Shown here in pieces: positions 11,243-64,000 of a stretch of 64,000 nt of DNA. The stretch's first letter is position 1. The number at the start of each line of letters is the position of its first letter. The notes below the pieces were generated by a model, which did no database searches, was not told where the DNA came from, and saw nothing but the letters and a program-made list of their open reading frames with translations. Where the stretch lies: assembly GCA_002369415.1 (NCBI GenBank), contig DFEZ01000011.1:145410-209409 (forward strand), given 5' to 3'. Position numbers and translations under genes: made by a program. This stretch comes from Bacillales bacterium UBA3789 (GTDB lineage: Bacteria > Bacillota_I > Bacilli_A > RF39 > UBA660).

Positions 11243-11268
11243 ATAAAAAAACTCGATTGCTCGAGTTA
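11243..11268 (-). terminator. Intrinsic terminator (AACTCGA-ttgc-TCGAGTT + T-run on minus strand)
   Basis: GC-containing 7-bp stem overlapping the stop codon of the upstream gene. Confidence 0.55.
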
Positions 11269-16677: not shown

Positions 16678-17529
16678 TTAATTTGTTATTTCAGTAAAAT
16701 AATAATTATTACTATTATCAAGTTTAAAATTAAATCTAAAGTGTTCAAATTCTTTGTAATTGTCTTCTGTCATAAATTTATTACCTAAAGTAAAGTCATC
16801 TATATCTATTCTATTATTTAAATTGAAATCTTTATATGCAGCATAACCACTATCTTCTTCTTGTACATATCCAAAATATACATCTACATAAGCTATATCT
16901 TCTAATTTCCTATAATTTGTTTTATAGACATATACTGATACATTTGATGTTCCGCCACAAGTTGGATCTAGAGCATAAAATAATTTATTATTATCATCAT
17001 AATAATATCCGAAACAACCCTTTACATCTTCTAGAGTGTATTCTATATCTCCAAATAGTATTTTAAAGTACTTTTCTACTTCACTTGAATTTATTTGTTT
17101 TACTGAGTCTATTCCCATAAATCTAATAGTTGAATCTACATCTTCTATTCCTGTTACTTTAATTTTTTGAGGTGAGAATTTACCTCCATAGTTTAGAAAA
17201 TCTAGAATTATTCTTAATCTTGTTTCATTATCTAGATTATTAAAGATATCTCCTCTTTCTGATGTATCTCCTCTTCTTAGATCATATGCACTAATATAAT
17301 CTGTTTTTATTTCTCTTCCATATAATAAGTAATCTATTTTATTAGATAGATCTCTTTTTACACTTGTATCATTTATATCTACTTCTATTTTTAGTTCACT
17401 TTGAGCCTTTCTAATGATCTTAGATGGAATCTCTCTATTTTTAGATATATATATACATGCACATATACATATTATAAATATAATAATTGAAAATACTAGA
17501 GCACCTTTTCCTTTACTTTCTTTCATCAT
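16678..17529 (-). CDS. Hypothetical membrane-anchored protein
   Basis: N-terminal TM (ALVFSIIIFIICICACIYI) plus a 250-aa extracytoplasmic domain. Confidence 0.4.
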   Translation of the reverse strand: MMKESKGKGALVFSIIIFIICICACIYISKNREIPSKIIRKAQSELKIEVDINDTSVKRDLSNKIDYLLYGREIKTDYISAYDLRRGDTSERGDIFNNLDNETRLRIILDFLNYGGKFSPQKIKVTGIEDVDSTIRFMGIDSVKQINSSEVEKYFKILFGDIEYTLEDVKGCFGYYYDDNNKLFYALDPTCGGTSNVSVYVYKTNYRKLEDIAYVDVYFGYVQEEDSGYAAYKDFNLNNRIDIDDFTLGNKFMTEDNYKEFEHFRFNFKLDNSNNYYFTEITN

Positions 17530-18220
17530 TATTAGCCTCCTTTGATACTATGTTTTCAATATCTTTTATATTCTTATTATCTTTTGTAATAGATGGGTAT
17601 GATTTAAATATTCTTCTATATAAGAAACTATGTTTTTTAAAGTTTTCTTTTATTTCTTTCTTTATTGCTTTAGTAGCATCTTTATGAAAATATTCTTGTG
17701 TATTTAATTGTAATTTAATTAATGTATATAAAGTAACCATCATATCTATTATAAATATAATCATTAATACTATACTTATTGTCATTATTGTAGTCTTTGA
17801 TAATGAATCAATAAAACCAAATACTACTGGATTAAATATCTTTAATACAAAGATTGATGCTACTCCAAAACCAATGGCATTTTGTAGGCAGACTCTTCCA
17901 TTAAGATTAAACTTCTTATCATAGTAGTTCCACCATCGTAGTTTAAATATTTTTTCTAATATATAACTTGATAAATATTCAAGTATTGTACAAAATACCA
18001 TACTTAGAATAAATAATGCTAGTAAGTCATTTTCATATTTAGCTAGACCATAATTAATTATTATTCCTCCAAATCCAAAGATTGGTAAATATGGTCCAAT
18101 GAAGAAACCTCTATGTAGAGATATTCTTTTATAATTAATTAGAATACTTACTGTTTCTATTAAGAATCCTAACATCGCGTAAATCATAAAGCGGAGATAA
18201 AAGTATAAAAATCCGTACAT
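17513..18220 (-). CDS. Hypothetical polytopic membrane protein (resembles the DUF1113 'putative ABC-transporter type IV' family)
   Basis: Six hydrophobic helices and a GFLIE motif; family call tentative. Confidence 0.35.
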   Translation of the reverse strand: MYGFLYFYLRFMIYAMLGFLIETVSILINYKRISLHRGFFIGPYLPIFGFGGIIINYGLAKYENDLLALFILSMVFCTILEYLSSYILEKIFKLRWWNYYDKKFNLNGRVCLQNAIGFGVASIFVLKIFNPVVFGFIDSLSKTTIMTISIVLMIIFIIDMMVTLYTLIKLQLNTQEYFHKDATKAIKKEIKENFKKHSFLYRRIFKSYPSITKDNKNIKDIENIVSKEANNDERK

Positions 18221-22407: not shown

Positions 22408-22436
22408 AGAAAAAAAAAGAAAGATAATCTTTCTTT
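22408..22436 (-). terminator. Intrinsic terminator after pilD (AGAAAGAT-a-ATCTTTCT)
   Basis: Hairpin plus 9-nt T-run on the minus strand. Confidence 0.55.
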
Positions 22437-23202
22437 AAAATGATTTAATAATTTCTATTATTATTGGTAGATTTAATCTAGTAAAATATATGAACATAAA
22501 GCTAATAAGTAAGAATGGTCCAAATGGTACTAGATTCTCTTTCTTTAGTGCTAATATTATTAAAGATATAGGTAAAGCTAAGATACTTGCGATAAAGATT
22601 ACTACTAATCCTAATAATGGGTTAATTAATAATCCAAAGACAAACATTAATTTAATGTCTCCTCCACCTAAACTTTCTTTTCTAAATATTAGGTTTCCTA
22701 ATAACATTATTCCAAACATAAATCCAAATAATATTAGACCATATCCTAAACTAATAAGAGCACTTTTAATTCCATAATTTATGATATTTATTATAGTAAA
22801 GTATATTGAGAAAAATATTAATACTTCATCTGGAATAATAAAATAAGATATATCTGAAATAGAAATAATTATTAGCATTGCAACTATTCCTAAAGCAATT
22901 AATAATTCAAATGAGAATCCAAATACATAAAAACTTAAGGCAAATAGTATTCCTGTAAATATTTCCATATATGTTGATAATGAATTTATCTCTGAATGGC
23001 AATATCTACATTTACCTCTTAGGAATAAATATGATAATACTGGTATCATATCTAGAAGAGATAATTCATGATTACAGGTGTCACAGTGACTTCTTGTTTT
23101 TATAAAATCTTCATGATTAGGTAATCTTAGGCCAATTACAGTAAAGAATGATCCAAAAACAGTTCCTAAAATAAAGAAGATAATTAAGTATACTACGTTC
23201 AT
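22435..23202 (-). CDS. pilD: Type IV prepilin peptidase (A24 family; PilD/ComC-like)
   Basis: N-terminal TM, cytoplasmic tetra-Cys zinc motif (HCDTCNHEL ... GKCRYCHSEI), polytopic C-terminal peptidase domain with conserved Asp (ISDISYFIIPDE ... GGGDIKL). Confidence 0.85.
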   Translation of the reverse strand: MNVVYLIIFFILGTVFGSFFTVIGLRLPNHEDFIKTRSHCDTCNHELSLLDMIPVLSYLFLRGKCRYCHSEINSLSTYMEIFTGILFALSFYVFGFSFELLIALGIVAMLIIISISDISYFIIPDEVLIFFSIYFTIINIINYGIKSALISLGYGLILFGFMFGIMLLGNLIFRKESLGGGDIKLMFVFGLLINPLLGLVVIFIASILALPISLIILALKKENLVPFGPFLLISFMFIYFTRLNLPIIIEIIKSF

Positions 23203-23212
23203 AATTACCTCC

Positions 23213-24655
23213 CTATTTAATTTGACTATAAATTGAGAACATTGGTTGAATTATTGATACTAAGATAATACCAACTACTACTGCTAAGAAACAGATAAGT
23301 ATAGGTTCAACTAAACTTTTCATCTGATCAATAACGTTTTTATGTAACATTTGGAAGTGTTGAGCAACTTTTTCCATCATCGTTCCTAATTGACCAGTTG
23401 TTTCACCGGTAACAATCATCTCATATGCAACAATTGGAATTGCCCATTCTCCTTTAAATGCAGATGATATTGAATCTCCTCTACCTAAGTTCTCTAATGT
23501 TCCTGAAATAATTCTCTTATATACTTCATTTGATGTAATCTTAGATAAGATTTCCATTGAGTCTGTAATAAATACTCCATGGTTTAATAATGATGCAAAA
23601 GTCTTTGTGAAGTTTGCTATTTCATTATAAATAATAATATCTTTAATTACTGGTAAATGCATCAAGATTATTTGGACTGTTTCTCTAAATTTTTGAGATT
23701 TAGTAAATGCTTCATAGAAAACAAATACTATTGCAAATATAACTATTAATAGCACCCACCATTTTTGTGATATAAATTCACTAGTTGAAACAATTATTTT
23801 TGTTAACATAGGTAGTTCTGCACCATTATCTTCAAACATTGATGTGAACTGAGGAACTAAGTAAGTTAACATGAATATTAAAACTCCAAATGCTATTGTT
23901 AATACGACAATCGGATAAGTCATTGCTGATTTCATTTGTTTTCTTGTTTGATCCATTGATGTATAATACTCAGCCATATCATCTAAGATAGAAGGTAAAT
24001 CTCCTGTCATTTCAGCAGTCTTTACCATATTAACTAATAATTTTGGATAAACTTTATCTTGCATTAACATTGCATCTGATAAGTCTTCTCCTTTTAATAA
24101 TTGATATACCAATTGATTAAAGCTTTTCTTTAATCCTGGCTTTGTAGTTTGTTTTGCTAAGATTCTAACTGAATCTACTAGAGGAATACCTGATTTAATA
24201 TATGTAGATAATTGAGTTAGTGTAAATGATAGGTCACTTGCACCGATTCTACCATTTCCTCCGATATCTACATCGAATTTTCCTCTTTCTTTTATCTCTA
24301 AAACTTCATAATCTTGTCCTAATAAGAAGTTTCTAACATCATTTTCTGATTCTGCTTCAAAAGTACCACTTTCTTTTTTACCTACACCATTAATAATTGT
24401 ATATCTATAGTCATGAACTGGTCTTTTTACTTTTTCATTTGAATCAAGTGCTGTTGGTTGAGCTGCTAAAGTTACACTTGTATCTTGTGCCATACCATCA
24501 GCTGTACCAGAATTACTTCCTGGCATTATATTATTATAGATATTTTGTGGAGGTTGAGTTGCTTGTACTGGTTGAGTTGCTTGAACTTGTTGTTGTACTG
24601 CTGGCTGTTGTGTTGCTGTTAATTGTTGTGCATTTGCATTTGATTTACCAAACAT
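23213..24655 (-). CDS. pilC: Type IV pilus / competence pseudopilus platform protein (GspF family; PilC/ComGB-like) with Gln/Thr/Pro-rich N-terminal extension
   Basis: Two GspF cytoplasmic repeats (LSFTLTQLSTYIKSGIPLVDSV ... ; FTKTFASLLNHGVFITDSMEIL ...) and three TM segments, ending ...PMFSIYSQIK. The N-terminal 70 aa are low complexity (QQPAVQQQVQATQPVQATQPPQ). Confidence 0.8.
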   Translation of the reverse strand: MFGKSNANAQQLTATQQPAVQQQVQATQPVQATQPPQNIYNNIMPGSNSGTADGMAQDTSVTLAAQPTALDSNEKVKRPVHDYRYTIINGVGKKESGTFEAESENDVRNFLLGQDYEVLEIKERGKFDVDIGGNGRIGASDLSFTLTQLSTYIKSGIPLVDSVRILAKQTTKPGLKKSFNQLVYQLLKGEDLSDAMLMQDKVYPKLLVNMVKTAEMTGDLPSILDDMAEYYTSMDQTRKQMKSAMTYPIVVLTIAFGVLIFMLTYLVPQFTSMFEDNGAELPMLTKIIVSTSEFISQKWWVLLIVIFAIVFVFYEAFTKSQKFRETVQIILMHLPVIKDIIIYNEIANFTKTFASLLNHGVFITDSMEILSKITSNEVYKRIISGTLENLGRGDSISSAFKGEWAIPIVAYEMIVTGETTGQLGTMMEKVAQHFQMLHKNVIDQMKSLVEPILICFLAVVVGIILVSIIQPMFSIYSQIK

Positions 24656-36793: not shown

Positions 36794-38728
36794 TTATGCA
36801 GCAATTTGTAATTGATTTGCATTTTGATCTTGCATTTGTTGTTGTAATGCTTGAACTTGTTGTCTACTTGTTTTTATTTGTGTACTACCTGTAACAGTTA
36901 TTTTATTTCCTGGTCTACTTAGTATATCGAATAGTGTTCTATTAAATTCACTCTTACTACGATATCTACCAGCTTTGAATTCATGGAATGCTGCTTTTAT
37001 TTTATTAAACATTCCACCCATTTCTCTTTCTTTTGTAGCTATTGCTTCTAAATCATCAGCCTGTTCTCCATATACTTCAGCTTTACTTTCAAAATGCCTA
37101 TTAATCATTCCTCTCTTCATCTCAACGAACATCTTAGGTGTCATTACTCTCTTCTGGAATCCTTCTATTTTAGTTTGTGCATTTTGAATGCCTTTTATTC
37201 TATATTTTAGTCTTGTTATTTTTCTATCTATACTTCTCTTTTGATATTCAGTCTTTAGACCTTTTTTTAATTCTTCTAATTCTTGTATTTGTTTTCTTAT
37301 TTTTATAATTTTAGCGCTTCTACTGTTATACATTTCATCTAAGCCATTTACTATAACGTTATCATCATAACTTAGATTTAATTCTCTTAGTCTTGCTATT
37401 TCTTTATCAATTTCTCTTGCTCTAGTTTGATACATCATATCAATAGGACCAATACCAGTTCTTTTTCTTAAGTATCTACTTTTCTTAATTTCTAGTTTTT
37501 TTATCTTTTCTTTTATTAAACTAGAATAAGTAGTTTCATGTTGATCATCGAAAATAGCTTCTTCTCTTTCTTTAAGAGCATTACGTAGTTTTTCTCTTAA
37601 TTCTTTGTTTTTAATTTCTTTAATTAAATCATTTATTCTATCTGCATTTTTTGGATCATGAAGTTCACTTTTTATTCTTGCAACTGCAAATCTAAATAAT
37701 TTATCCTTTTCTTTATCATCTAGCTTATCATAATTTTTATCTAAATATCTTACTATATCTTCAATTTCTTTACTATTAAATTGAACTTTTTCGTGTATAA
37801 TTCTACTTTCTAAATCTATTCTTAATGAATAACCTGACTTATTTATTTTATCTAATACATTAATTGTTTCATCTGAATCTTTTTCATCTCTTAATAATGC
37901 AATAACATTTTTAGTTATGATTTCTATATAATCATTATATTTACTTTGTTCAATTGTTTTATCTTTATCTAATAACTCTAATAATTCTATTATTTGAGTA
38001 CTAGATAATTTAACATCAACTCTTGGATATTTTTTATAAATATCATAAGCAAATTCATAATTATTAATTACTGGGAATGATTTATCTTCTCCCATTAAAT
38101 CCATTAGTTTAAATAATGTTTCTAGATCTTCATCTTTATTCTTTTTATAATCTTCTATATCCATACTATCAAGTTTAGCAATTAAAGAATCTCTTACGGC
38201 TTTAGCCATATCACTAATATTACTATTCTTGAAATTATTACTTTGTCTTAGTATTATTACTCTATTTCTTAAAGAATTAAATTTTGCAACTTCGTTTACT
38301 CCTAATCTATATTGCATACTTGATGGATTAGTATTTTCAATTCCATCATAGTTAATTGCTTGTAGATTTTGATCTTCATCAAGTTTTAATAATTTTGCCA
38401 TTTCTAATCTTGTTTTAAATAATTCTGCATTATATGGAGGAATCTGTGAAGTTAAGCTACTTAATTTATCAAGTTGCTCTTGTGATAAATTCATTGTTGT
38501 AAAATCTTCAGTTTCTATTCCTGTATAATTAATTCTTCTATATTCTGCACTGTTTTCAAATCCTATTATTGTTGCAATTTCATATCTTACACTATATATT
38601 TCCAGAGTTTTTAATTCATCTTCAACTTTTTTTATTTCTATTGAACTAGATGATGAAACATTTTTTAATTCTTGTAATTGTTGTTGTTTATATTTAATTA
38701 GTATTCTTACTTGTTCAATATTATACAT
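36794..38728 (-). CDS. Hypothetical large coiled-coil protein with Gln-rich C-terminus
   Basis: 644 aa, heptad-rich and K/E-rich throughout; ends QQVQALQQQMQDQNANQLQIAA; no TM segment. Confidence 0.45.
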   Translation of the reverse strand: MYNIEQVRILIKYKQQQLQELKNVSSSSSIEIKKVEDELKTLEIYSVRYEIATIIGFENSAEYRRINYTGIETEDFTTMNLSQEQLDKLSSLTSQIPPYNAELFKTRLEMAKLLKLDEDQNLQAINYDGIENTNPSSMQYRLGVNEVAKFNSLRNRVIILRQSNNFKNSNISDMAKAVRDSLIAKLDSMDIEDYKKNKDEDLETLFKLMDLMGEDKSFPVINNYEFAYDIYKKYPRVDVKLSSTQIIELLELLDKDKTIEQSKYNDYIEIITKNVIALLRDEKDSDETINVLDKINKSGYSLRIDLESRIIHEKVQFNSKEIEDIVRYLDKNYDKLDDKEKDKLFRFAVARIKSELHDPKNADRINDLIKEIKNKELREKLRNALKEREEAIFDDQHETTYSSLIKEKIKKLEIKKSRYLRKRTGIGPIDMMYQTRAREIDKEIARLRELNLSYDDNVIVNGLDEMYNSRSAKIIKIRKQIQELEELKKGLKTEYQKRSIDRKITRLKYRIKGIQNAQTKIEGFQKRVMTPKMFVEMKRGMINRHFESKAEVYGEQADDLEAIATKEREMGGMFNKIKAAFHEFKAGRYRSKSEFNRTLFDILSRPGNKITVTGSTQIKTSRQQVQALQQQMQDQNANQLQIAA

Positions 38729-46334: not shown

Positions 46335-46362
46335 TAAAAAAAGAGAACTTAACGTTCTCTTT
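46335..46362 (-). terminator. Intrinsic terminator after the 46361 gene (AGAGAAC-ttaac-GTTCTCT)
   Basis: Hairpin plus T-run; closes the giant-pilin-1 / 46361 transcription unit. Confidence 0.5.
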
Positions 46363-47098
46363 AAATTCTTTCTAAGCCACTATCTAAATAAAAATCTTCT
46401 CCAGGTATTTTAAATGCAATTACAAGGTTACCACCTTCACTATAAAATAGTATTACATCATTATAGTTATTTTGTAATTCATATTCTTTATTTTCATCTT
46501 TATTTAATCTTTCTGTTGCATCTTTAATTGTTTTAGCAATTTCTTCATCTTTTACTTGTTCAATTTCTCTTATTTCTTCTTGAGTTAATAATCTCTTTTC
46601 TTTTTTATCATAAGTAAATGCTTCATAACTCAATGATTTTCTTTCTTCTGTACAATAATCTGTTTGTTTTCTATGTACTCCAATTGAAATTATGAAATCA
46701 TTCTCAAATGGAGCAAATCTTACTTCATTATATAATCTGTAGTTATATTTACTTCTTGCTTTATCACAAGTACTATCATTCATATCTGATTTCTTTGCTT
46801 CTTCAAATAATCTTAATGTTTCTTTATTAACTCTTTCTAGTTCTTTATTTAATACTTTATAATCATATTTTATTTTTATTAAATCATAATAATCATATAC
46901 TGGTCCTTGACAATCTTCAAGTGAATTCTTTTTACATACTTTTAATTTATTAGAATTGTCATAATCCCAGAAATTTTTATTTTCTACTTCTTGTTCTTTT
47001 GATGTAAATTTATTAAAACCAAATACACCTAATATGATTAATAATATTAATACAACTACTGAAATAATTATTTTATTTTTATTTTTATTCTTTTTCAT
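46361..47098 (-). CDS. Hypothetical membrane-anchored protein, immediately downstream of giant pilin-like gene 1
   Basis: MKKNKNKNKIIISVVVLILLIILGVFGF signal-anchor; only 38 nt from the pilin-1 stop, so likely co-transcribed. Confidence 0.45.
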   Translation of the reverse strand: MKKNKNKNKIIISVVVLILLIILGVFGFNKFTSKEQEVENKNFWDYDNSNKLKVCKKNSLEDCQGPVYDYYDLIKIKYDYKVLNKELERVNKETLRLFEEAKKSDMNDSTCDKARSKYNYRLYNEVRFAPFENDFIISIGVHRKQTDYCTEERKSLSYEAFTYDKKEKRLLTQEEIREIEQVKDEEIAKTIKDATERLNKDENKEYELQNNYNDVILFYSEGGNLVIAFKIPGEDFYLDSGLERI

Positions 47099-47136: not shown

Positions 47137-50100
47137 CTATCCTGGGCATGTAGAGTATGGGCAGACTGTATTATATCCACCTATACAGTTACGATAGATA
47201 TGTACCCAGTGACAATTACCATTCCAACATTGGTATGGAGTTTCTACATATCCATATAAATCTCCATAATACCAACTTGTATCTTCTGAAATAACATATA
47301 CTCTATCGTTACGTCCACCTAATGAGTGATAGATTGTACCAACGAAAGTACTATCATCTTTATAAGAACTATTATAAATTGCAGTCATTCCGGCACGACA
47401 CGCTGTTTTCCAAACACATCCTTTTGGATTATTTTCACCACAACATGATTGTGTAGTATTATATCCACATTTTGCTACGCTTCTATTTCCTGCTTTATCT
47501 ATTACAAGCATATAATTATAATATGTTGTTCCTCCACATGCTGTATTCAAAGCAGATGAACTTGACCATCCATTTGACCAAGCTATATCATTAGGATTTG
47601 AATAGTCTACTGTAGTTGCCATATAGTATCTAGCAGAAATACCACTGTATTCTACATTATTTATCTTATCATGTGATCCTGTATCACTCATTGATGATCC
47701 ACTTATACCACAAAGTGGAGTTGGAGGTTCAGGGTCCACAGGTGTATTACATGTTTTTGCAGCACATGATTCTTCGTTACCAGCTTTATCTTTTATTGTA
47801 AATGCTGGAACAGCTGTTGTCTTTCGTGCTGTATTTAGTGCAATTTCACCTTTAGCGGAATCGTCTGCAATACCACTTTCATTATCTGTTCCACCATATG
47901 TAAGTTTTAAATTTTTATTATTAGTCCATGAAGTAATACTACAATTTGCATATGAACATTTAGGAAGCACTGCATCTATTTTAACAACTTGATTATTTGG
48001 ACACGCATCTGAAACGTTACCAGCAACATCTTTAAATGTATAAGCTACTCCTGCTCCATTTGGTCCTCCATTAGATATATTTATACTTGTAGTTGTTGTA
48101 TATTTATGTGATTTTGTCTTTGATGCACAAGTACTTCCACCATCTTTATCACTACATTTACTTGTAACTACTACATAGTCACCTTTTTTCAACCATGTAT
48201 TTGATGGTGTTGTTGGTTGACCACTTGAATTATATTCAGCTTTTGTTGTTGAACATGTTGGTTTTGTGTAATCTATTTTTACTATTCTATTTGCAGGACA
48301 TTTTGTTGTATTGTCAGCATTATCTTTTACTGTTCCACCTTCATCTTTACCAGCTGCTCCTGCAGTTGTTGTTACTATTTCAAAATTATATAGATTAGAT
48401 AATGTTTTATATTCTTCATGACATCCTGAAACTACACTTTTTTGTGCCTTATCATTACATGTTGCTGTTACAGTTGCTGTTTCACCTTTCATTAACCAAC
48501 CATCTTCTGTGTTGTTATGTGTTTTTCTATCTCCTCCAGAATAAGTAACTTTTGTTGTACAATCAGGAGCTTTATGGTCTATTTTTATATCTTTAGTTGC
48601 TGCACAATTCACTGTATTTCCAGCATTATCAGTGAACGATCCACCTTTTCCTGCTCCTGCTGCTCCACCATTACTTATGTTAATATCATCTTTATATTCA
48701 TGTGAAAATACTTTTGAACTACACTCACTTATGCTTAATATTCCTTCTTTTTTTACATCATCACATGTTGCTGTTACAACAACCGTTTCACCTTTTCCTG
48801 CCCAGTCTGATTTAGAGAATTCTCCATCTCCTTCTGCTCCTTTTTCGTGATTCATTGTTCTTTCAACAGTACATTTTGGAGCTACTGTATCTAACCAAAT
48901 CTCTGGCTTGTGTGCAATATATCCTGAACAGTTATTGGCATTATCACACAATGCAAATTCAATCTTATCTTTTCCTTGATAATCCTTTGAGAATACGAAG
49001 GCTGTTTGATCTTTATCTCCATAATATTCGTTTTTATTTGTATCACTTGCTTCATTAACTAATAGTTTACCATTTAAATCATATACATTGTATTTTCCTT
49101 TATAGAAACCTGATACATTATCGTTTTTAAAGTTATTTGCGATATATGCTTTTACATATTTATTTGTCCATGTAGCTGGACTATAATCATTTCCGTTTTG
49201 AGCTCTTATATCATTCTTTTGAAGATATGAAGTATTTACTGTTAATCTTCTAACATTTGGTGCTGTCTTATCTACATATGCATTGATGTTTACGACTGTT
49301 TTATTTCCAGCTCTATCATATACTGTTAATTTACCCCATCTAACTCCATCTGTAGGTAATCCAATATCTATTGAATATGTATTATCATCAATGAATTTGT
49401 TTGTTGGAGTTTGAAAATCACCTAAGTCACTATCATCATTTGCATCTGATACTTTTTTCTCATCTGCAGTATATGTAGTTTTAGATTTTACTCCAGAAAC
49501 ATTTGTTTCCCATGTCCATGAAGCTAATTCGATATTATCTTTTGTAGTAACATGAATGACTGGTCCGTCTGGAGAATTACTTCCATTAAACCATTTGTTT
49601 TCATCTGCACCAGCATCAATTTTATATGTATTAAAATCTATTGTTCCTGAATTGTTTCTTCTATTACCATTTGCATCTAGTCCACCAACTGTCTTAGATG
49701 CAACTACTGGTTCATTGTCTCCTGCTTTTGCTTTAACTGTTACATTTACTTCTGGTTCTAGAATATCAACGTTTACTCTAACTAAACATCTATAGTCACC
49801 AGTTTCATCTCTTCTGTGGTTTGCATCTCCCGCATCATTCCAATCATCTGGAAGACTATCTTTTACTGGTCCATCATTTCCTGCATTATCCTTAATATAA
49901 ATCCAGGCATATTTTGCACCATATAGATATGGTTGAGTTCCATTAACTGTTTGATTATTTGGCCATGTTTGAGTAAATATTTCTCTTAAACATTGACTTC
50001 CATCACCATCTGAACATTTAATTTGAATACTCTTTCCTCTTCCGGCTTTTTCATATGCAGCACGGTTATACCATTCTCCTGGTTTTGCTTGAGTAAATTT

Positions 50101-50895
50101 AAGTAAGTTAGCACTATTATCTTCACAATATGGTGGTATTGTATCTTGATAATCTGCATAACTTCCTGTACCTGTTTCAGCATGTTCATCTAAACTTCCA
50201 CCTGTTGTGTTTCTTGCTAATACTGTTAATCTTACTGATGTTATACCTGTTAAATCAATATATTTTTTAATCTTTTCACTTACGTTTATTTCTGTTCTAT
50301 TTTCTCCATTTAAGACTCCAGAATTATACACTTCTTGGTAATCTGTTTGAGCATCACGTTTTGTAGAAATAACATATGTATAAGATGTAATTTCTGTATT
50401 CTTATTTGTTGCTGATCCTAATATTGTAAATGAGAAACTTGCAACACCAACGTCATTAGAATCAGAGAAAATAATTCCGTTCTTTAATACTGGTGGATCT
50501 ATTGCCTCTTCTATTGGAGGAACTTCACTACCACAATATACATGAGGCTTATAATCATAGGAATTCTTTCCTGTTTTAATTACCTCAATAAATGAATTCT
50601 CCATACAATTTTTACCATCATCACGAATAATATCTTCTGTTAGATATTTTGTATCTTTTAATTCTTGAAATGGTATTTTTATTGACTCTCCAATTCCTTT
50701 TGGAGCCAATTCTTTATTTGCTTGTAAGTAGCTTTTTGCAGCTAAAGTTGCTGATTTTACTTCTGTTATATTTTTTTCATTTTTAGATTTATCAATTACT
50801 CTAGATACTGCAAATATAGTTACTGATGCTAGTATTCCTAAAATAACTACTACTGCTAATAATTCTACTAATGAGAAACCCTTTCTATTATTCAT
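47137..50895 (-). CDS. Giant modular type IV pilin-like protein 1 (prepilin-type N-terminal cleavage/methylation domain + pilin head + Ig-like D-x-A-G-N modules + 4 Cys-bracketed tandem repeats + Cys-rich C-terminal domain)
   Basis: MNNRKG|FSLVELLAVVVILGILASVTIFAV class III signal (G-1, F+1, E+5); pilin head with Cys pair CMENSF...YCG; 1252 aa; own promoter TTGTAT-17-TATAAT at 50918-50946. Confidence 0.8.
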   Translation of the reverse strand: MNNRKGFSLVELLAVVVILGILASVTIFAVSRVIDKSKNEKNITEVKSATLAAKSYLQANKELAPKGIGESIKIPFQELKDTKYLTEDIIRDDGKNCMENSFIEVIKTGKNSYDYKPHVYCGSEVPPIEEAIDPPVLKNGIIFSDSNDVGVASFSFTILGSATNKNTEITSYTYVISTKRDAQTDYQEVYNSGVLNGENRTEINVSEKIKKYIDLTGITSVRLTVLARNTTGGSLDEHAETGTGSYADYQDTIPPYCEDNSANLLKFTQAKPGEWYNRAAYEKAGRGKSIQIKCSDGDGSQCLREIFTQTWPNNQTVNGTQPYLYGAKYAWIYIKDNAGNDGPVKDSLPDDWNDAGDANHRRDETGDYRCLVRVNVDILEPEVNVTVKAKAGDNEPVVASKTVGGLDANGNRRNNSGTIDFNTYKIDAGADENKWFNGSNSPDGPVIHVTTKDNIELASWTWETNVSGVKSKTTYTADEKKVSDANDDSDLGDFQTPTNKFIDDNTYSIDIGLPTDGVRWGKLTVYDRAGNKTVVNINAYVDKTAPNVRRLTVNTSYLQKNDIRAQNGNDYSPATWTNKYVKAYIANNFKNDNVSGFYKGKYNVYDLNGKLLVNEASDTNKNEYYGDKDQTAFVFSKDYQGKDKIEFALCDNANNCSGYIAHKPEIWLDTVAPKCTVERTMNHEKGAEGDGEFSKSDWAGKGETVVVTATCDDVKKEGILSISECSSKVFSHEYKDDINISNGGAAGAGKGGSFTDNAGNTVNCAATKDIKIDHKAPDCTTKVTYSGGDRKTHNNTEDGWLMKGETATVTATCNDKAQKSVVSGCHEEYKTLSNLYNFEIVTTTAGAAGKDEGGTVKDNADNTTKCPANRIVKIDYTKPTCSTTKAEYNSSGQPTTPSNTWLKKGDYVVVTSKCSDKDGGSTCASKTKSHKYTTTTSINISNGGPNGAGVAYTFKDVAGNVSDACPNNQVVKIDAVLPKCSYANCSITSWTNNKNLKLTYGGTDNESGIADDSAKGEIALNTARKTTAVPAFTIKDKAGNEESCAAKTCNTPVDPEPPTPLCGISGSSMSDTGSHDKINNVEYSGISARYYMATTVDYSNPNDIAWSNGWSSSSALNTACGGTTYYNYMLVIDKAGNRSVAKCGYNTTQSCCGENNPKGCVWKTACRAGMTAIYNSSYKDDSTFVGTIYHSLGGRNDRVYVISEDTSWYYGDLYGYVETPYQCWNGNCHWVHIYRNCIGGYNTVCPYSTCPG

Positions 50896-50917
50896 ATCAT
50901 CACCTACTATACAAATA

Positions 50918-50946
50918 ATTATAAAATATTTTTAATTTTTATACAA
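50918..50946 (-). promoter_or_regulatory. Candidate promoter for giant pilin-like gene 1 (TTGTAT-17 nt-TATAAT)
   Basis: Minus strand reads TTGTATaaaaattaaaaatatttTATAAT, 23 nt upstream of the ATG; RBS AGGTGA. Confidence 0.5.
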
Positions 50947-50985
50947 TATAAAAAACTAAATTTTGGCAATTTAGTTTTTTTTAAT
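50945..50985 (-). terminator. Intrinsic terminator after giant pilin-like gene 2
   Basis: AAAACTAAATT-ttggca-AATTTAGTTTT 11-bp stem followed by T-run. Confidence 0.6.
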
Positions 50986-50986
50986 T

Positions 50987-53900
50987 CTATCCTGGGCAAG
51001 TGGCATATGGACAGGCACTATTATTTCCTCCTACACAGTTTGGCCATATATATGCATATGGGGCATTTCCTGCAGGATACCATGATATATTACCACAAGG
51101 TGAATAAATATATAATTTCTTAGAAGCAGAACCTTCTATTAAATATAATCTATCACTACATGATGAGTCTTTTTGATGATATACAGTACCGGCATATGTT
51201 GTTTTTGCTTCACTTGTATAGATGAATGTTCTTCCGTTACGACACGCTGTCTTCCAATTACATCCCCATGGATTAGATTCACCACAACAAGAACCTGTTG
51301 TATATGAACCAGTACATACAAATGATTCTGAGTTACCTGCTTTATCAATTACTTTAATGTGACCATAGTAAGTAGTACCACAACTTGTTCCTAATGCATT
51401 TGATGATTTCCATGCATTTGATGAAGTTGATTGCTTACTACTTGAAGTACTTGATATGTATACGACAGATGATACTCCACTATGTGAATCACTCTTAGAA
51501 TTTACATTAATTTTATTTCCTGACACTGAACATGATCCAGTTGGTTTTGTTTTATCAACTAAAACATTACAACTTGGAGTACATTTTCTTTCGTTACCAG
51601 CAATATCTTTAATTATATATTCATCAAGAGTAAATGATTTAGTTGTTTCAGTAATTGTTCTATCTTTTAGTGTAGTTGCACAACCACTTCCATTTGTATC
51701 TTGGCAACCATATTTAACTGTTCTATTTTGATTTGTCCATGATGTATTATTACAATTTTCTGTATAACAACTTGGTGCTACTGCATCTATTTTTACTGTC
51801 TTATAACCACACATTTTTGTATTTCCAGCTGTATCTGATACCGATTTAGCAACGCCATCTCCTCCAGCTCCAGCTGTTGTTGTATTAATTAGTTTATCTG
51901 TTTGATAAAGTTTGCTGAATGTTTGAGTTGCACATTCACTTCCACCTTGATCAGAACATGTTGCTGTTACTCTTGCAGTTTCTCCTTTACTTAACCAGCC
52001 AGATTCAGTATTATCATGAGTTTTCTTATCTCCACCTTCATATGTGATTGATAAGTTACATACTGGATCAGTTTGATCTATTTTAACTGTTTTATTTGCA
52101 TCACAATTAGTTACATTATCTGCGGCATCTTTTACTGATCCGCCGTTTCCAACATCTATTGCTCCAGCATTATTTATATTTGTTTCTGTGCTATATGTTT
52201 TTGAAAATGGTTGAGTAACACAACCAGAATTAATATCTTTAGTCTCACTACATTTTGCTGTTACTACCGCTTGTTCTCCTTTACTTAACCAACCAGTTGA
52301 TGATAGTTTTCCATCACCTTTGCTGCTATCTGTTACTTCATATTTAATTGAAGTTGTACAAATTGGTGCAGTGTGATCTATTTTTACTGTTTGATTTGCT
52401 GAACAAGGTGCTTCATTTCCAGCATTATCTTTTACTGTTCCACCTTCATTATTACCAGCTGCTCCTGCAGTTGTTGTACTAATTGAATCTTTATATTCAT
52501 ATGAAATCTTTTCATCAACACAACCACTACCTGATTTACCAGCATTTTGATCTGAACATGTACCTGTAACTGTAATTGTTTCTCCTATTCCAGCCCATTT
52601 TGCATCAGATAGATATCCATCTACTTCATCAATAGTCTTATTAACATTTTGACTTACTGAACATACTGGATCTATTGTATCTAACCAAATTTCTTTTACT
52701 TCACTATAAGTTGAACAGTTATTTGCTTTATCACATATTCTATATCTTACACTGTTCTTTCCTTGATAGTTTGAATCAAATGTAAATTCAGTATCTCCTT
52801 TTTTAGTAGCATTATCATTTAGAGAAATTCCATGTCCTCTAACTTCAAATTCTGCTTTGTCAAATCCAGATATTGTATCTTTATGATAGTCTTTATTAAC
52901 GTATGTTTTTACATATTTATTAGTCCATGTTTTAGATTGATAATCTTTATCTTCATCTGCTCCAATATTATTCTTTTTAAGTGTTTTAGTAATTACAGTT
53001 GCTGGTGTATCAGGTCTTGTTCTATCAATATTTGCATAGATGTTAATAACTGTTTTATTACCAGCTCTATCATATACTGTTAATTTACCATATCTTATTC
53101 CTTCACCTTTTAATTGAACAACAAATTCAGATGAAGTTAATCCATTATCATTAATACTTAAGTCTTGTTCTGGGAATGATTCTTCTTTACTATCTGGGTT
53201 TCCTACTTTTATATCTTTAATTATATTTTTATTTTTAACATAATCAGATTTTGATACTCCAGTTTCATTTGTTTCCCATGTATATTTATATAGATGAAGA
53301 TTATCATTTACTTTGATCTTGTATGTTACTCCATCTTTATGTTCTTCATTAAACCAGATCCAGTTTTCATCTCTTGGAGATTTATTTAAATTATATGAAT
53401 TTGCTGTAATAGATGCTATATCATCATACTCATTATAATTTTCATCTGCTCCTCCAGCAGAAACTGTTTTAATAATATTATCATTTGTAATTGCTGTTAC
53501 TTCTACTCTTGGAGATAAGATGTCTACATTAACTCTTACACGGCAGCTTGCTTTTGTTTCTGCATTTGTAAGAGATGAGTTATTTGCATTATCTTTTACT
53601 TCTATATATGCATATTCTGCTCCCCAATAGTAATGTTTTTCTCCTCTATAAATATCATTATTAGGGAATGATTTAGTAAATGTAGTTCTTAAGCAACCAC
53701 TACCTTCTCCATCCCCACATGTTGCTGTTATCTTTCTATATCCGCCTTTAAGGCTTTCAATTGTATGTTTATTTGTCCATTCATTTGGTTTAGCTTCATT
53801 ATCTATTTTTATACATTTAGGAGATATTGTATCTCCATAGTCTCTTTCACTATCTATACCAGTTTGTTTTGTTATTGATGTTATACCACCTTGTTCATTT

Positions 53901-54601
53901 ATAACTGTAATATTAACTCTTACTGATGTTACTGAAACTATATCAACATAATCTACTAATTTATAAGATTTAATAATTTTAGTATTGTGATTTCCTGGAA
54001 CAGATCCACTATTATAAACTTCTTGATATGAAGTATTATCCTCTAACATTGTAGATATTGTGAAACTATAACTATCTATTTCTAATGGATTGTTTTTATC
54101 TTCTGATCCTTCCATTGTCATTGTAAAACTTGCTGATGAAACATCATCGGCATTTGAAAAATCAAATTTTGTTATTACTGGTGAAATTGCTTCTATCTCT
54201 GCTGGTGCTTTTTCATCACCACAATATAGATATGCAGTATAAGAATAGTCAGTTCCTTCTGATTTATAAACTCTAACAAAGCTTTCTTTCATACAAGTTT
54301 CTCCTCTAGAGTTTTTTAAATCACTAGTAATATACTTTGTATCTTTTAATTCTTTAGCAGTAATTATTTTATGTTCACCAATTGCTTTAGGTGCTTGATC
54401 TTTATTGTCTTGTAAATATTGTTTAGCTGCTACTAGCAATGTATCTTTTGCTTCAATATTTGTTTCATTTCTTGCTTTTTCAATATACTTACTTACAGCA
54501 GTTATTCCTACAACTGATAAAATCCCTAATATTACTATTACGGCTAATAATTCAACTAATGTGAACGCTTTACTACTTTTAGTTTTTTGTTCTTTACCCA
54601 T
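50987..54601 (-). CDS. Giant modular type IV pilin-like protein 2 (paralog of protein 1, same architecture)
   Basis: MGKEQKTKSSKA|FTLVELLAVIVILGILSVVGITAV prepilin N-terminus (E+5); head Cys pair CMKESF...YCG; 1204 aa; ends ...CPYATCPG like protein 1's ...CPYSTCPG. Confidence 0.8.
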   Translation of the reverse strand: MGKEQKTKSSKAFTLVELLAVIVILGILSVVGITAVSKYIEKARNETNIEAKDTLLVAAKQYLQDNKDQAPKAIGEHKIITAKELKDTKYITSDLKNSRGETCMKESFVRVYKSEGTDYSYTAYLYCGDEKAPAEIEAISPVITKFDFSNADDVSSASFTMTMEGSEDKNNPLEIDSYSFTISTMLEDNTSYQEVYNSGSVPGNHNTKIIKSYKLVDYVDIVSVTSVRVNITVINEQGGITSITKQTGIDSERDYGDTISPKCIKIDNEAKPNEWTNKHTIESLKGGYRKITATCGDGEGSGCLRTTFTKSFPNNDIYRGEKHYYWGAEYAYIEVKDNANNSSLTNAETKASCRVRVNVDILSPRVEVTAITNDNIIKTVSAGGADENYNEYDDIASITANSYNLNKSPRDENWIWFNEEHKDGVTYKIKVNDNLHLYKYTWETNETGVSKSDYVKNKNIIKDIKVGNPDSKEESFPEQDLSINDNGLTSSEFVVQLKGEGIRYGKLTVYDRAGNKTVINIYANIDRTRPDTPATVITKTLKKNNIGADEDKDYQSKTWTNKYVKTYVNKDYHKDTISGFDKAEFEVRGHGISLNDNATKKGDTEFTFDSNYQGKNSVRYRICDKANNCSTYSEVKEIWLDTIDPVCSVSQNVNKTIDEVDGYLSDAKWAGIGETITVTGTCSDQNAGKSGSGCVDEKISYEYKDSISTTTAGAAGNNEGGTVKDNAGNEAPCSANQTVKIDHTAPICTTSIKYEVTDSSKGDGKLSSTGWLSKGEQAVVTAKCSETKDINSGCVTQPFSKTYSTETNINNAGAIDVGNGGSVKDAADNVTNCDANKTVKIDQTDPVCNLSITYEGGDKKTHDNTESGWLSKGETARVTATCSDQGGSECATQTFSKLYQTDKLINTTTAGAGGDGVAKSVSDTAGNTKMCGYKTVKIDAVAPSCYTENCNNTSWTNQNRTVKYGCQDTNGSGCATTLKDRTITETTKSFTLDEYIIKDIAGNERKCTPSCNVLVDKTKPTGSCSVSGNKINVNSKSDSHSGVSSVVYISSTSSSKQSTSSNAWKSSNALGTSCGTTYYGHIKVIDKAGNSESFVCTGSYTTGSCCGESNPWGCNWKTACRNGRTFIYTSEAKTTYAGTVYHQKDSSCSDRLYLIEGSASKKLYIYSPCGNISWYPAGNAPYAYIWPNCVGGNNSACPYATCPG

Positions 54602-54628
54602 ATCTTTTCACCCTATTTTTACTATTAA

Positions 54629-54660
54629 ATTATATCAAAAACAGAGTATATAAATCAATA
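54629..54660 (-). promoter_or_regulatory. Candidate promoter for giant pilin-like gene 2 (TTGATT-18 nt-TGaTATAAT, extended -10)
   Basis: Minus strand reads TTGATTtatatactctgttttTGATATAAT, about 28 nt upstream of the ATG; RBS AGGGTGA. Confidence 0.5.
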
Positions 54661-54672
54661 AAAAAAAAGAAA

Positions 54673-55377: not shown

Positions 55378-55965
55378 CTATCTATTCATAGCTATCTTTG
55401 TATCGTCTTCTATTACTTGGATTATTCCATGATAATGACTATCACTTGGAACAATACTATCTTTATCTATCCAAACTCTTATTGTAATAGTTTTTTCATC
55501 TAACGCTTCTATTTCACTATCTAATAGTATTTTATCTTCTAATTCAGATAAGTAATATATTTCATTTGATTTATTATCCTCTTTTACAGATATTTTTATA
55601 TCTTCTTTAGGTATTTGTTTATCATCACATCTATCACTAATTATACTTTCTATATCATCTAGTATTTTTACTTTATAATTAACATTTTCAGTTAAGTTGT
55701 TCTTAATAGATAATACATATGAATTTGATGATAATCCAACTGAGTCAGTTACAGGAGTTGCTTTTGTAATAGATATTTTATCTCCTGATTTTTCATGATA
55801 AGAAATATCTAATGAATCAGAACTAAAATCTATGTCACTACTTCCTGTATATTTATTATATATATATAATGTTGATACTACTGCTACTAATAAAACACAA
55901 GCAATTTGTAGTATGCTTTTAATTAAAAATTTCTTCATACCTGATTTATACATGTTACACCTCAA
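55378..55965 (-). CDS. Hypothetical membrane-anchored protein
   Basis: N-terminal TM (FLIKSILQIACVLLVAVVSTLYIY) and an extracytoplasmic domain. Confidence 0.4.
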   Translation of the reverse strand: MRCNMYKSGMKKFLIKSILQIACVLLVAVVSTLYIYNKYTGSSDIDFSSDSLDISYHEKSGDKISITKATPVTDSVGLSSNSYVLSIKNNLTENVNYKVKILDDIESIISDRCDDKQIPKEDIKISVKEDNKSNEIYYLSELEDKILLDSEIEALDEKTITIRVWIDKDSIVPSDSHYHGIIQVIEDDTKIAMNR

Positions 55966-62212: not shown

Positions 62213-62899
62213 TTATTCTACTAATAATCCCATAACTAATTGATATTTATGATTAGGATCTCCATTAGAACAAGTTTGAAGTATTATTACATGAGATTCT
62301 TCTTCTAACTCAATATCACTATGTATATTTGATTTATTCTTTAATTTATTTAAATGTTCTTTATAAGTAAGTCCATTAAAACTCTTTAGATTTACATAAT
62401 CAAAATCTTGTGTTTCTATATAACTAGAAAAGATTTCATATTTATATTTTTTATCATTTGTATAAAGATAGATATATTTATTATTTTCATAAAATTCTTG
62501 ATTATTATAATTAGATAGTTTATTAAATGATAGAGTTATTTCCATATCACTGTGACCATATACTAGTAGTTTTTTATCATTTAATAAGTCATTTCTATAA
62601 TCTAAGAATGTAGCACCATAGATGTCTTCTTCTTTTTTTATATTATGATTTAAATAATAATCATTATCAGATGTTTGTAGTAATATTTCTTTAAATAAAT
62701 TAGGTATTTCTATTACACCTACTATATCATCATTGTTGTATTCTTTTTTTAATTTATCTACTATCTTAGTATCTTCCTTAACTTCTGGAATATTTATTTC
62801 CGGTTTATAATCATATTTTCTATCTACTGATTTAATACCTATAAAGAATACTGAAATGATTAGAATTAATAGTAAGAGTACTCTTAATACTTTCTTCAT
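62213..62899 (-). CDS. srtB: Class B sortase
   Basis: N-terminal TM, YGH His motif (LLVYGHSDM), KYKYEIFSSY beta-strand pattern, LQTC catalytic Cys motif; co-linear with S. aureus SrtB. Confidence 0.65.
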   Translation of the reverse strand: MKKVLRVLLLLILIISVFFIGIKSVDRKYDYKPEINIPEVKEDTKIVDKLKKEYNNDDIVGVIEIPNLFKEILLQTSDNDYYLNHNIKKEEDIYGATFLDYRNDLLNDKKLLVYGHSDMEITLSFNKLSNYNNQEFYENNKYIYLYTNDKKYKYEIFSSYIETQDFDYVNLKSFNGLTYKEHLNKLKNKSNIHSDIELEEESHVIILQTCSNGDPNHKYQLVMGLLVE

Positions 62900-62971
62900 G
62901 TAACCACTCCATTTACGAACATATTATAACATATATAAATAAAAAAAACCAAGCAATGCTTGGCTTTTTTA

Positions 62972-64000
62972 TTAATCCTCTAATTTCTTTCTAAATATTA
63001 CTGCAATTAAACTTGATACGAATAATACGAATAATTCAATTAAACTTCCTTTATTATTATATCCAATACCTGTATTAGGTGGAGTTATTTCTGGAACAGG
63101 TCCATTATATTTATTAGTAATATCAAATCCATTGATTATAGTTTCATAATTAGCTACTTTAATTTCATTAATTGAATAAACTATTTCAATTCCTTGATCT
63201 CTATATTTATATAATGGATTTCCATCATAATCTTCATAGAATGTATAAACCCATCCATTTTCAGCAGTTAATTCTGCAGTTCCGATTTCTTCACCATCAG
63301 CGTATAAGATTATAGTTATTAAAGCAGGTCTTGATGAATATTTATTGTCTTCATCATCCCAAGTTTTAGTTACAGTTATTTGTCCATCATTATCTGGATC
63401 ATCATCGTCTTCATTTATTAGCTCTGGAATATGAGTATTTTCTAATTCACCATCGAATTCATATGTGTCTCCGTCAGTGTATTCTTCACCCTCATGAGTA
63501 TTATTAACTGGAGTAACTTCTCCTGGAGTATAGTAAGGTACTGCCTCTTCAGAAATTGTATATTCAACTGGTTGTCCATTCATGTATTTTGGTAAATTAG
63601 TGAATGTATGTGTCCATTTGTTGAAGTCTTCAGCTTCTTCAATAGTAATTACAGTTGGCTCTCCATAAGCTTCTCCGTTTGCTAATAATTGAACTGTGAT
63701 TGATTCTGGTCTCTTACCATCTCTATCGTAATCATCATTCCAAATCTTAGAAATTGTATAATTAATAACTTCTGGAGTATGTGTATTAACGATATCTAAT
63801 GATTTAAGATCATCTGTTCTTTCATATTTTTCACTGTCGCAAGTTTCTGCAACTGTGTAATCTATTACTTCACCATTTGCATATTTTGGAACTTCTGGGA
63901 ATGTTACTGTCCATTGATTACCTTCTGATAATACGTCAGTAAATTCTGTTGGTTCTCCATTTGCTAGTAAAGTTACTGTAATATTTTCAGGTCTCATACC
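62972..64000 (-). CDS. Cell-wall-anchored adhesin with Cna B-type repeats and C-terminal PPNTG sorting signal (5' end beyond window)
   Basis: At least 3 Cna-B repeats (RPESITVQLLANGE...NKWTHTF..LPKY.NGQPVEYTISE). C-terminus is PPNTG + hydrophobic helix + RKKLED. Confidence 0.7.
   Translation of the reverse strand, partial: GMRPENITVTLLANGEPTEFTDVLSEGNQWTVTFPEVPKYANGEVIDYTVAETCDSEKYERTDDLKSLDIVNTHTPEVINYTISKIWNDDYDRDGKRPESITVQLLANGEAYGEPTVITIEEAEDFNKWTHTFTNLPKYMNGQPVEYTISEEAVPYYTPGEVTPVNNTHEGEEYTDGDTYEFDGELENTHIPELINEDDDDPDNDGQITVTKTWDDEDNKYSSRPALITIILYADGEEIGTAELTAENGWVYTFYEDYDGNPLYKYRDQGIEIVYSINEIKVANYETIINGFDITNKYNGPVPEITPPNTGIGYNNKGSLIELFVLFVSSLIAVIFRKKLED

Follow-up and report, generated by a model that had tools for sequence, protein, structure and literature searches.

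Introduction

Pilins with grafted functional modules, probably located at the filament tip, are an established concept, and the largest modular pilin in the survey of Raynaud et al. 2021 (PMC8179133) contains 860 amino acid residues. In Streptococcus sanguinis the module of PilB is a vWA domain and that of PilC is a lectin (PMC8179133). The heads of the type IVb tip minor pilins CofB and TcpB, from enterotoxigenic Escherichia coli and Vibrio cholerae, serve as adaptors for CofJ (PMC8179133). A further point of reference is provided by the VARTIG modules of the Thermococcales and the polymorphic toxin systems (Makarova et al. 2021, PMC8416519). The concept of modular pilins is of recent date, and few of their heads (vWA, lectin and CofB-type) have been characterized. 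Described here is the cysteine-rich C-terminal domain of two paralogous giant pilins encoded by Bacillales bacterium UBA3789 within a 64-kb stretch of contig DFEZ01000011.1, hereafter referred to as the window. On balance, and with a confidence slightly better than even, we regard this domain as a recognition head at the far end of a giant modular type IV pilin.

Results

Anatomy of the C-terminal region

Pilins 1 and 2 are encoded by tandem open reading frames (ORFs) on the minus strand, and the plus-strand frames of the same coordinates are full of stops. The positions of these and other features are listed in Table 1. The two proteins are paralogous along their whole length with an amino acid sequence identity of 42%. 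Over the last 113 residues the identity is 50%, modestly above the whole-length average, and over the last ~75 residues it is only 31%. An earlier note on this DNA had described a conserved domain of ~190 residues with ~14 cysteines at the end of each protein. The ranges given do correspond to the 3' ends of the pilin ORFs, and both the quoted peptides and the motif CC-G-E-x-N-P-x-G-C-x-W-K-T-A-C-R are found there verbatim. The number of cysteines in each ~190-residue region is 12, not 14, and although the region is indeed cysteine-rich in both proteins, it is not a single domain. Rather, it is composed of an immunoglobulin (Ig)-like stalk module followed by a terminal module of ~100 residues. 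The enrichment is pronounced at the very end, where cysteine accounts for 10 of the last 113 residues (8.8%), as compared to 0.98% across the remaining 52 window ORFs (binomial P ~2e-7).

The stalk is built of modules of ~80-105 residues that begin with '(K)ID-x-x-x-P-x-C' and end with 'D-x-AGN-x(3-6)-C'. Pfam matches to Big_13 (PF19077) and Big_6 were found in homologues of the scaffold; the window pilins themselves give no significant match to a Big family, the best being Big_3_2 with E = 0.44. The terminal module of pilin 1 contains six core cysteines plus a lineage-specific pair (QCWNGNC), and that of pilin 2 the same core together with another additional pair (SSCSD / SPCGN). In an alignment of 21 sequences, C21, C27, R28, G30, T32, C98, C106 and C111 of the module are invariant, and C13, W23, T25, G47, H51, Y61, I94 and P112 are nearly so. 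A hypervariable stretch of 20-60 residues separates the conserved 'D-x-L-Y-[IL]' and 'V-Y-I-Y-x-N-C' segments. In most members the tripeptide C-P-G forms the exact end of the protein.

Table 1. Coordinates of the features discussed, in window numbering unless a locus is named. A slash marks the prepilin cleavage site.
Feature	Position	Strand	Remarks
Pilin 1 terminal Cys-rich module	47140..47442	(-)	residues 1152-1252, CGENNPKGCVWKTACR...NCIGGYNTVCPYSTCPG; verified translation, family alignment
Pilin 1 last Ig-like stalk module	47443..47712	(-)	residues 1062-1151; the first C of 'CC' is its last residue
Pilin 2 terminal Cys-rich module	50990..51286	(-)	residues 1106-1204
Pilin 2 last Ig-like stalk module	51287..51532	(-)	residues 1024-1105
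Giant modular pilin 1	47137..50895	(-)	1252 residues; translation and prepilin profile matches
Giant modular pilin 2	50987..54601	(-)	1204 residues; paralogue, Ala at -1 of the prepilin cleavage site
Pilin 1 prepilin leader and hydrophobic α-1N	50806..50895	(-)	MNNRKG/FSLVELLAVVVILGILA; PF07963, TIGR02532 and PDB matches
Pilin 2 prepilin leader and α-1N	54494..54601	(-)	SSKA/FTLVELLAVIVILGIL; PF07963, TIGR02532
Partner protein	46361..47098	(-)	245 residues; N-terminal membrane anchor, outward-facing domain, four invariant Cys
Partner homologues	L006 13123..13848 and 17218..17922; L009 11241..11936; L010 13275..13982; L011 13064..13789; L015 12472..13122		
Prepilin peptidase, PilD-type	22435..23202	(-)	PF06750 and PF01478; ~24 kb from the pilins
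Type IV filament platform protein, PilC/GspF-type	23213..24655	(-)	480 residues; two PF00482 domains

Prepilin identity of the two proteins

Both proteins begin with a class III signal, the hallmarks of which are a short basic leader with a glycine at its end, an aromatic or hydrophobic residue at +1, a glutamate at +5 and a stretch of ~20 hydrophobic residues. Note that in pilin 2 the residue at the -1 position is an alanine (residues 12-13; 54565..54570, minus strand), as is also the case in its orthologues. Pilin 1 matches PF07963 with 30.2 bits and TIGR02532 with 27.1 bits, and pilin 2 with 23.5 and 21.7 bits, respectively, the cut-offs being 21.2 and 16.3 bits. Matches to pilins in the PDB (geopilin, PilE1) are restricted to the α-1 region, residues 2-58. 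Two conserved cysteines, Cys 97 and Cys 121 in pilin 1, would fit a small pilin domain after α-1. The order of parts is a class III signal and α-1 helix, a small two-cysteine pilin domain, a conserved scaffold of ~450 residues that many other large pilins share, a series of cysteine-stapled Ig-like modules and the head. More than 1100 residues of non-pilin sequence follow the pilin module, as would be expected of a modular pilin.

Probable pairing of the cysteines

As can be seen from the family alignment, the cysteines of the region come and go in twos. The total number is even in 14 of the 16 full-length family proteins (chance P ~0.002 for sequences that are related to one another). From the cysteine of the G-C-x-W segment to the C-terminus there are either five cysteines or, with an extra pair, seven, and the pair occupies one of three alternative sets of positions according to lineage. 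In the last stalk module the cysteine at the start and that following AGN are both present in 12 sequences and both absent in four. Likewise, 16 sequences have both the cysteine of C-G-x-T-Y-Y and the first C of 'CC', and two have neither; in these two another type of stalk precedes the head. In those homologues with a thrombospondin-type repeat inserted ahead of the head, 'CC' is observed on either side of the insert. These patterns indicate that the cysteines form disulfide pairs, and they support the disulfides suggested earlier; the bonds themselves are inferred. Because the first C co-varies with the cysteine of C-G-x-T-Y-Y, and because 'CC' flanks the thrombospondin-type inserts, we conclude that 'CC' marks a module junction, with its first cysteine closing the preceding stalk module and its second opening the head. 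Given the co-variation across this junction, the head is predicted to be covalently stapled to the stalk.

Relatives of the terminal module

A profile of the terminal module built from pilins 1 and 2 was run with HMMER, without an index, against 1.84 billion cluster representatives. Of the 24 proteins retrieved, 22 are true relatives, all of them from metagenomes or metagenome-assembled genomes (MAGs). The two others, P0004 and P0019, were rejected as eukaryotic protocadherin concatenations with summed weak repeats. The profile picks up pilin 2-type and remoter relatives with E values of 1e-31 to 1e-5. Most of the 22 are proteins of 780-1260 residues with a prepilin motif and the module at the extreme C-terminus, in keeping with the earlier placement of the domain distal to the pilin helix. 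A word-indexed search of 5.8 billion proteins returned nothing for a 138-residue C-terminal query and only two known relatives for a 22-sequence profile. The index-free scan was needed because the word index missed nearly all members even though they are present in the collection. No relative was confirmed in a scan of a genome collection with CCGE and GCxWKTAC patterns, and literature searches for giant pilins turned up no publication on the family.

The terminal module has no match in Pfam, NCBIfam or the PDB. At E <= 10, Pfam gave nothing meaningful for the module, its 21 members or the stalk, and a profile search of the PDB with the module yielded only chance matches to T-cell receptors and AMA1 (E ~0.4). 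By these comparisons the module is an undescribed domain, outside the signatures of all three resources. Attempts to predict its fold with AlphaFold2 (AF2) led to models of low confidence. For the 204-residue region with a two-sequence alignment the predicted local distance difference test (pLDDT) score was 31, and the better model, with six short strands, reached 55. The closest, non-significant Foldseek neighbours of that model are small barrels of the Sm/Hfq and SH3-like types. The earlier suggestion of a lectin or toxin-like domain finds no likeness in sequence (Pfam, NCBIfam, PDB) or in fold (the weak AF2 model and Foldseek).

The module is also found behind other stalk types, behind thrombospondin type 1 repeats (TSRs) or behind a plain transmembrane helix. 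With respect to the stand-alone homologues that the earlier note proposed to look for, two short ORFs with a transmembrane anchor (P0006 and P0013) were located, and most relatives proved instead to be the ends of long prepilin proteins. A third candidate, P0048, was rejected as a frameshift fragment behind a 777-residue ORF. The TSR is unusual in bacteria. In P0012 a TSP_1 repeat directly upstream of the module scores above the Pfam cut-off; repeats of this type are positioned exactly at the 'CC' junction ahead of the head in P0012 and, by eye, in P0007, P0010, P0015, P0018 and P0024.

Exchange of heads and the wider superfamily

Loci syntenic with that of the window were found in a 'Bacillales' MAG (L001), in GCA_011262095.1 (L006) and on four metagenome contigs (L009, L010, L011 and L015), and the slot between rpmF and addBA holds one to three giant pilins per locus. 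The body of pilin 1 of L001 (9441..13271) is orthologous to that of window pilin 1, with 59% identity. Its last ~280 residues share 75-83% identity with its own paralogue, pilin 2, as opposed to 33-54% with window pilin 1. Since the tail matches the paralogue and the body matches window pilin 1, this tract of about two stalk modules and the head is, by sequence comparison, a gene conversion from the neighboring pilin 2. The paralogues of L006 share 63% identity in the body and 36% in the head. For orthologues, as judged from the window and L004, the N-terminal ~380 residues are 85-93% identical and the head 84-88%, and the stalk is the least conserved part (63-82%). These alignments show cassette-like swapping, as read from the sequences, of the head and the last one or two stalk modules between paralogues.

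The N-terminal 560 residues of pilin 1 retrieve 59 further large pilins of 410-948 residues. In a local hmmsearch the module was present in only two of these 59. Roughly 30 of the 59 end in other very cysteine-rich tails, with 9-26 cysteines in the last 100 residues, and the remainder include non-cysteine β-rich, β-helix-like or glycine-rich heads. In that the scaffold homologues bear other ends, the head under study represents one interchangeable type on a common carrier, and a variable, recombining C-terminus is attached to a long exported protein, as in the polymorphic toxins. Unannotated cysteine-dense tails (up to 26 cysteines per 100 residues; CNCxxCNC, ...TCYR) occur in P0066, P0083, P0073, P0076-78, P0104 and P0106, among others. 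Another unannotated group of sister pilins among the listed scaffold homologues has the end motif W-x-x-W-x-x-W ... C-R-T-L-Y-Y. A relationship between the module and the cysteine-rich tail of the L002 pilin was considered and rejected (hhalign probability 0.1%).

The membrane-anchored partner

Following the module-bearing pilins in eight loci (window, L001, L005, L006 (twice), L009, L010, L011 and L015) is a gene for a membrane-anchored protein of ~216-245 residues, hereafter the partner. In L005 the short ORF P0006 precedes the partner homologue and another prepilin. No partner is found near P0022, which lies in a different locus, and pilin 2 lacks a partner gene to itself. Behind pilins that carry other heads there are instead unrelated ORFs for small membrane-anchored proteins (L13_143, L14_149 and L15_108), the last of which gives only a 23-bit match. 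The partner has no match in Pfam or the PDB. The possibility that it is a Dsb-like oxidoreductase was rejected since no CxxC thioredoxin motif is apparent by eye. The partners of the window and L001 are orthologous, with 73% identity, while the adjacent head types differ. The probable role of the partner is that of a helper in folding or assembly, or of a cognate receptor.

Genomic setting

The GC content of the window is 22-33%. The gene order around the pilins is Zn-peptidase, MYG1, a 195-residue membrane protein, YceD, rpmF, pilin 2, pilin 1, the 245-residue partner, AddB and AddA. The window also encodes the pair expected of a type IV pilin system, namely a prepilin peptidase of the PilD type and a platform protein. 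For the platform protein, TIGR02120 and the PilC models of NCBIfam outscore ComGB, and none reaches its equivalog cut-off. This pair (22435..24655, minus strand) is isolated between DnaD-like and TGT housekeeping genes, with no adjoining ATPase or small pilin. Apart from pilins 1 and 2, no prepilin motif was found in the 64 kb.

An AT-rich hairpin with a run of T directly past the stop codon of pilin 2, and a promoter-like site ahead of pilin 1, lie within 50896..50986 (minus strand). An extended -10 promoter-like site (54658..54629, minus strand) is located in the gap between rpmF and pilin 2 (54602..54672), and a terminator-like hairpin follows the partner gene (46340..46362). Taken as a whole, the arrangement suggests two transcription units, one of pilin 2 alone and the other of pilin 1 and the partner.

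The 195-residue membrane-anchored protein upstream of yceD (55378..55965, minus strand) belongs to no known family, and its position is kept in L001, L006, L009, L010, L011, L014 and L015. A sortase gene and then a gene for a protein with three Cna_B domains, which runs to the edge of the window (62213..63997, minus strand), probably represent a separate sortase-dependent adhesin or pilus locus. Three minus-strand ORFs, 36794..38728 (644 residues), 5330..6778 (482 residues) and 11266..12231 (321 residues), have no Pfam match at E <= 0.01, and the 644-residue ORF has no NCBIfam family either. Scans for Rfam families and for tRNA genes found nothing in the window.

Discussion

How the parts might work together can be envisioned as follows. 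The PilD encoded in the window would cleave the prepilin leader, after which the α-1 helix would serve as the anchor, either within a type IV filament (probably at the tip) or just in the membrane. The stalk would then hold the head tens of nanometres off the cell. The terminal module, which is β-rich, has six invariant or nearly invariant cysteines and is presumably stapled to the stalk via the first cysteine of 'CC', would act as a recognition or binding module in which a disulfide-fixed core displays the hypervariable hairpin between the last two strands. We infer that the head binds a putative ligand.

A number of observations weigh against this proposal. Glycine is nearly universal as the residue just ahead of prepilin cleavage (-1). 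The residue is an alanine in pilin 2 and a threonine in the relative P0002, and P0022 is flagged for the same site. With a residue other than glycine at this position, leaders of the pilin 2 type are possibly cleaved poorly, or not at all. A Pfam scan of the window ORFs of at least 90 residues revealed no T2SSE-type ATPase and no major pilin in the 64 kb, and the pilin genes lie amid housekeeping genes (rpmF ... addBA), outside any pilus operon. For these reasons incorporation into a filament is an assumption. Firmicutes generally avoid cysteines in exported proteins, as Daniels et al. are said to have noted in 2010, and no Dsb- or VKOR-like gene turned up among the genes of the window. In the short ORFs P0006 (L005 31..453) and P0013 the module directly follows a plain transmembrane helix. 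Lacking a stalk, these heads would lie against the membrane surface and not out at a distal tip; the contigs of both are shorter than 1.5 kb, and assembly artefacts are possible. Finally, with pLDDT scores of 31 and 55, and no Foldseek match with E < 0.7 for the better model, the β-barrel topology and the disulfide connectivity are only predicted.

Could the head serve the architecture of the protein rather than bind an external ligand? It might be a disulfide-locked cap, an oligomerization domain or a docking domain, which would either finish off and stabilize the Ig-like stalk or be held by the partner during export and folding. The proteins mostly end right after the invariant C-P-G, the predicted staple joins the head to the last stalk module, the majority of the alternative tails in the superfamily are likewise just very cysteine-rich, the strict linkage to a membrane-anchored partner would suit a dedicated helper, and short transmembrane-anchored versions of the module occur. 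An internal loop that varies in length by 20-60 residues, though, would be unexpected in a cap. In addition, the heads outpace the divergence of the body between paralogues (36% versus 63% identity) and yet are conserved between orthologues, and the adhesive TSP1 repeats that adjoin the module in homologues point to binding. A purely structural role is considered unlikely, if the least so of the alternatives. Only slightly less probable is a pilus-borne polymorphic recognition system, in which swappable cysteine-rich heads would be matched to cognate membrane proteins for discrimination between kin, or self and non-self, or for contact-dependent antagonism, among the cells of these uncultured low-GC bacteria of the gut or rumen type. 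Such a system could be viewed as a pilin-anchored analogue of contact-dependent inhibition (CDI) and polymorphic toxin systems or of the archaeal VARTIG modules. A somewhat more doubtful version has the head as an effector that acts outside the cell or a self/non-self determinant, carried on the pilin-anchored stalk, and the outward-facing partner as its cognate immunity protein or receptor. Here the hallmark layout is present: a long filamentous protein, a variable C-terminus that recombines and a small gene next in line downstream. Heads are exchanged by gene conversion, alternative heads occur on related pilins in the same rpmF-addBA slot, the type of small membrane protein downstream follows the type of head, and the organization parallels that of the VARTIG and polymorphic toxin systems (PMC8416519). 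Neither a recognizable toxin domain nor a co-switching immunity gene is evident, however. No toxin or enzyme signature was detected in any library, and a 100-residue domain with multiple disulfides is unlike translocated toxins. Moreover, the locus is a conserved slot of the core genome and not an accessory island. The orthology of the partner between the window and L001 despite the different adjacent head, the absence of a copy for pilin 2 and the lack of a toxin signature argue against a strict toxin-immunity pair.

Two further alternatives concern the chemistry and the fold of the head. The cysteines might bind a metal (zinc or iron sites, for example, as would suit an anaerobic habitat) or form other cross-links in place of disulfides. 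The organism is of the low-GC Firmicute type and probably anaerobic, no disulfide oxidoreductase turned up in the window, some sister pilins have CxxC-rich tails with up to 26 cysteines in 100 residues, and the module contains an invariant histidine. Against this, cysteines are gained and lost in pairs and never in fours, 14 of 16 proteins have an even total, and co-variation is pairwise across module boundaries, a pattern characteristic of disulfides. Metal sites are considered quite improbable. Least probable, by a hair, is an SH3b-like small β-barrel that binds the cell wall, such that the protein would span from the membrane to the peptidoglycan with no fibre tip involved. By eye, the segments C-R-x-G-x-T-x-I-Y ... 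G-T-V-x-H ... D-R-L-Y-[IL] ... V-Y-I-Y resemble the strands of bacterial SH3 domains, the low-confidence AF2 model has six short strands, its nearest, non-significant Foldseek neighbours are small barrels of the Sm/Hfq and SH3-like types, and the unrelated head of the L002 pilin has a faint match to SH3_3 (E = 0.068). Yet neither SH3b profiles nor any other SH3 family matched the 21 module members at E <= 10, save for one SH3_retrovirus match with E = 0.12. There is also no sequence match in the PDB, the fold matches have E > 0.7, and the L002 tail that gave the faint match is not related to the module by hhalign. Specific evidence speaks against each of these alternatives, and we retain the distal recognition head as the preferred description.

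Regardless of the function of the head, the genes reveal that uncultured low-GC Bacilli possess a superfamily of very large pilins that has gone unannotated, with at least 59 clusters sharing a common 560-residue scaffold. The distal ends are interchangeable and mostly cysteine-dense, and the window module represents one defined type, with 22 clusters and its own membrane partner. Such a density of extracellular cysteines in a Firmicute-type organism runs counter to the usual exclusion of cysteine from exported proteins. The head and its partner provide a concrete pair for asking what the pilins of gut- or rumen-type communities recognize, and the swapping of heads together with the pairing of partners makes a pilus-based system for recognition or antagonism possible.

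Comparison with known systems

Like PilB and PilC of Streptococcus sanguinis, the window pilins combine an N-terminal prepilin module with a C-terminal functional module for which display at the tip is expected, and the host is a monoderm. They differ from PilB and PilC in their size of 1200-1250 residues, in the scaffold and Ig-like stalk of ~900 residues between the pilin module and the head, in a head that has no InterPro or Pfam signature, in the location of the genes outside a pil operon, and in the membrane partner encoded downstream. With CofB and TcpB they share the order of a pilin module, a β-repeat spacer and a C-terminal β-rich head without a sequence signature. There is no detectable sequence similarity to CofB or TcpB, though, and the latter are far shorter and have no cysteine-rich head. 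Furthermore, CofJ is secreted, whereas the partner described here is membrane-anchored.

The resemblance to the VARTIG proteins is one of organization, and no homology is claimed. In both cases a large secreted Ig-domain protein has a C-terminus of ~200 residues that is hypervariable via recombination and contains no recognizable toxin domain, and in both cases subfamily-specific membrane proteins are encoded immediately downstream. The window proteins, in contrast, are bacterial, are anchored by a type IV pilin helix, occupy a housekeeping slot (rpmF-addBA) and end in a six-cysteine head rather than an Ig domain. Some homologues contain a thrombospondin type 1 repeat (PF00090) that adjoins the module and is bounded by the same 'CC' junctions; the window pilins have no such repeat, and their terminal module is not a TSR either. 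Finally, the Gram-positive fibrillar adhesins of the stalk-and-head type likewise project a terminal domain on a repeated Ig-like stalk, a similarity underscored by the Big_13 and Big_6 matches in the scaffold homologues. In the window pilins the polarity is reversed, with an N-terminal pilin-helix anchor in place of a C-terminal LPXTG motif, the head at the C-terminus and a stalk that is stapled by cysteines.

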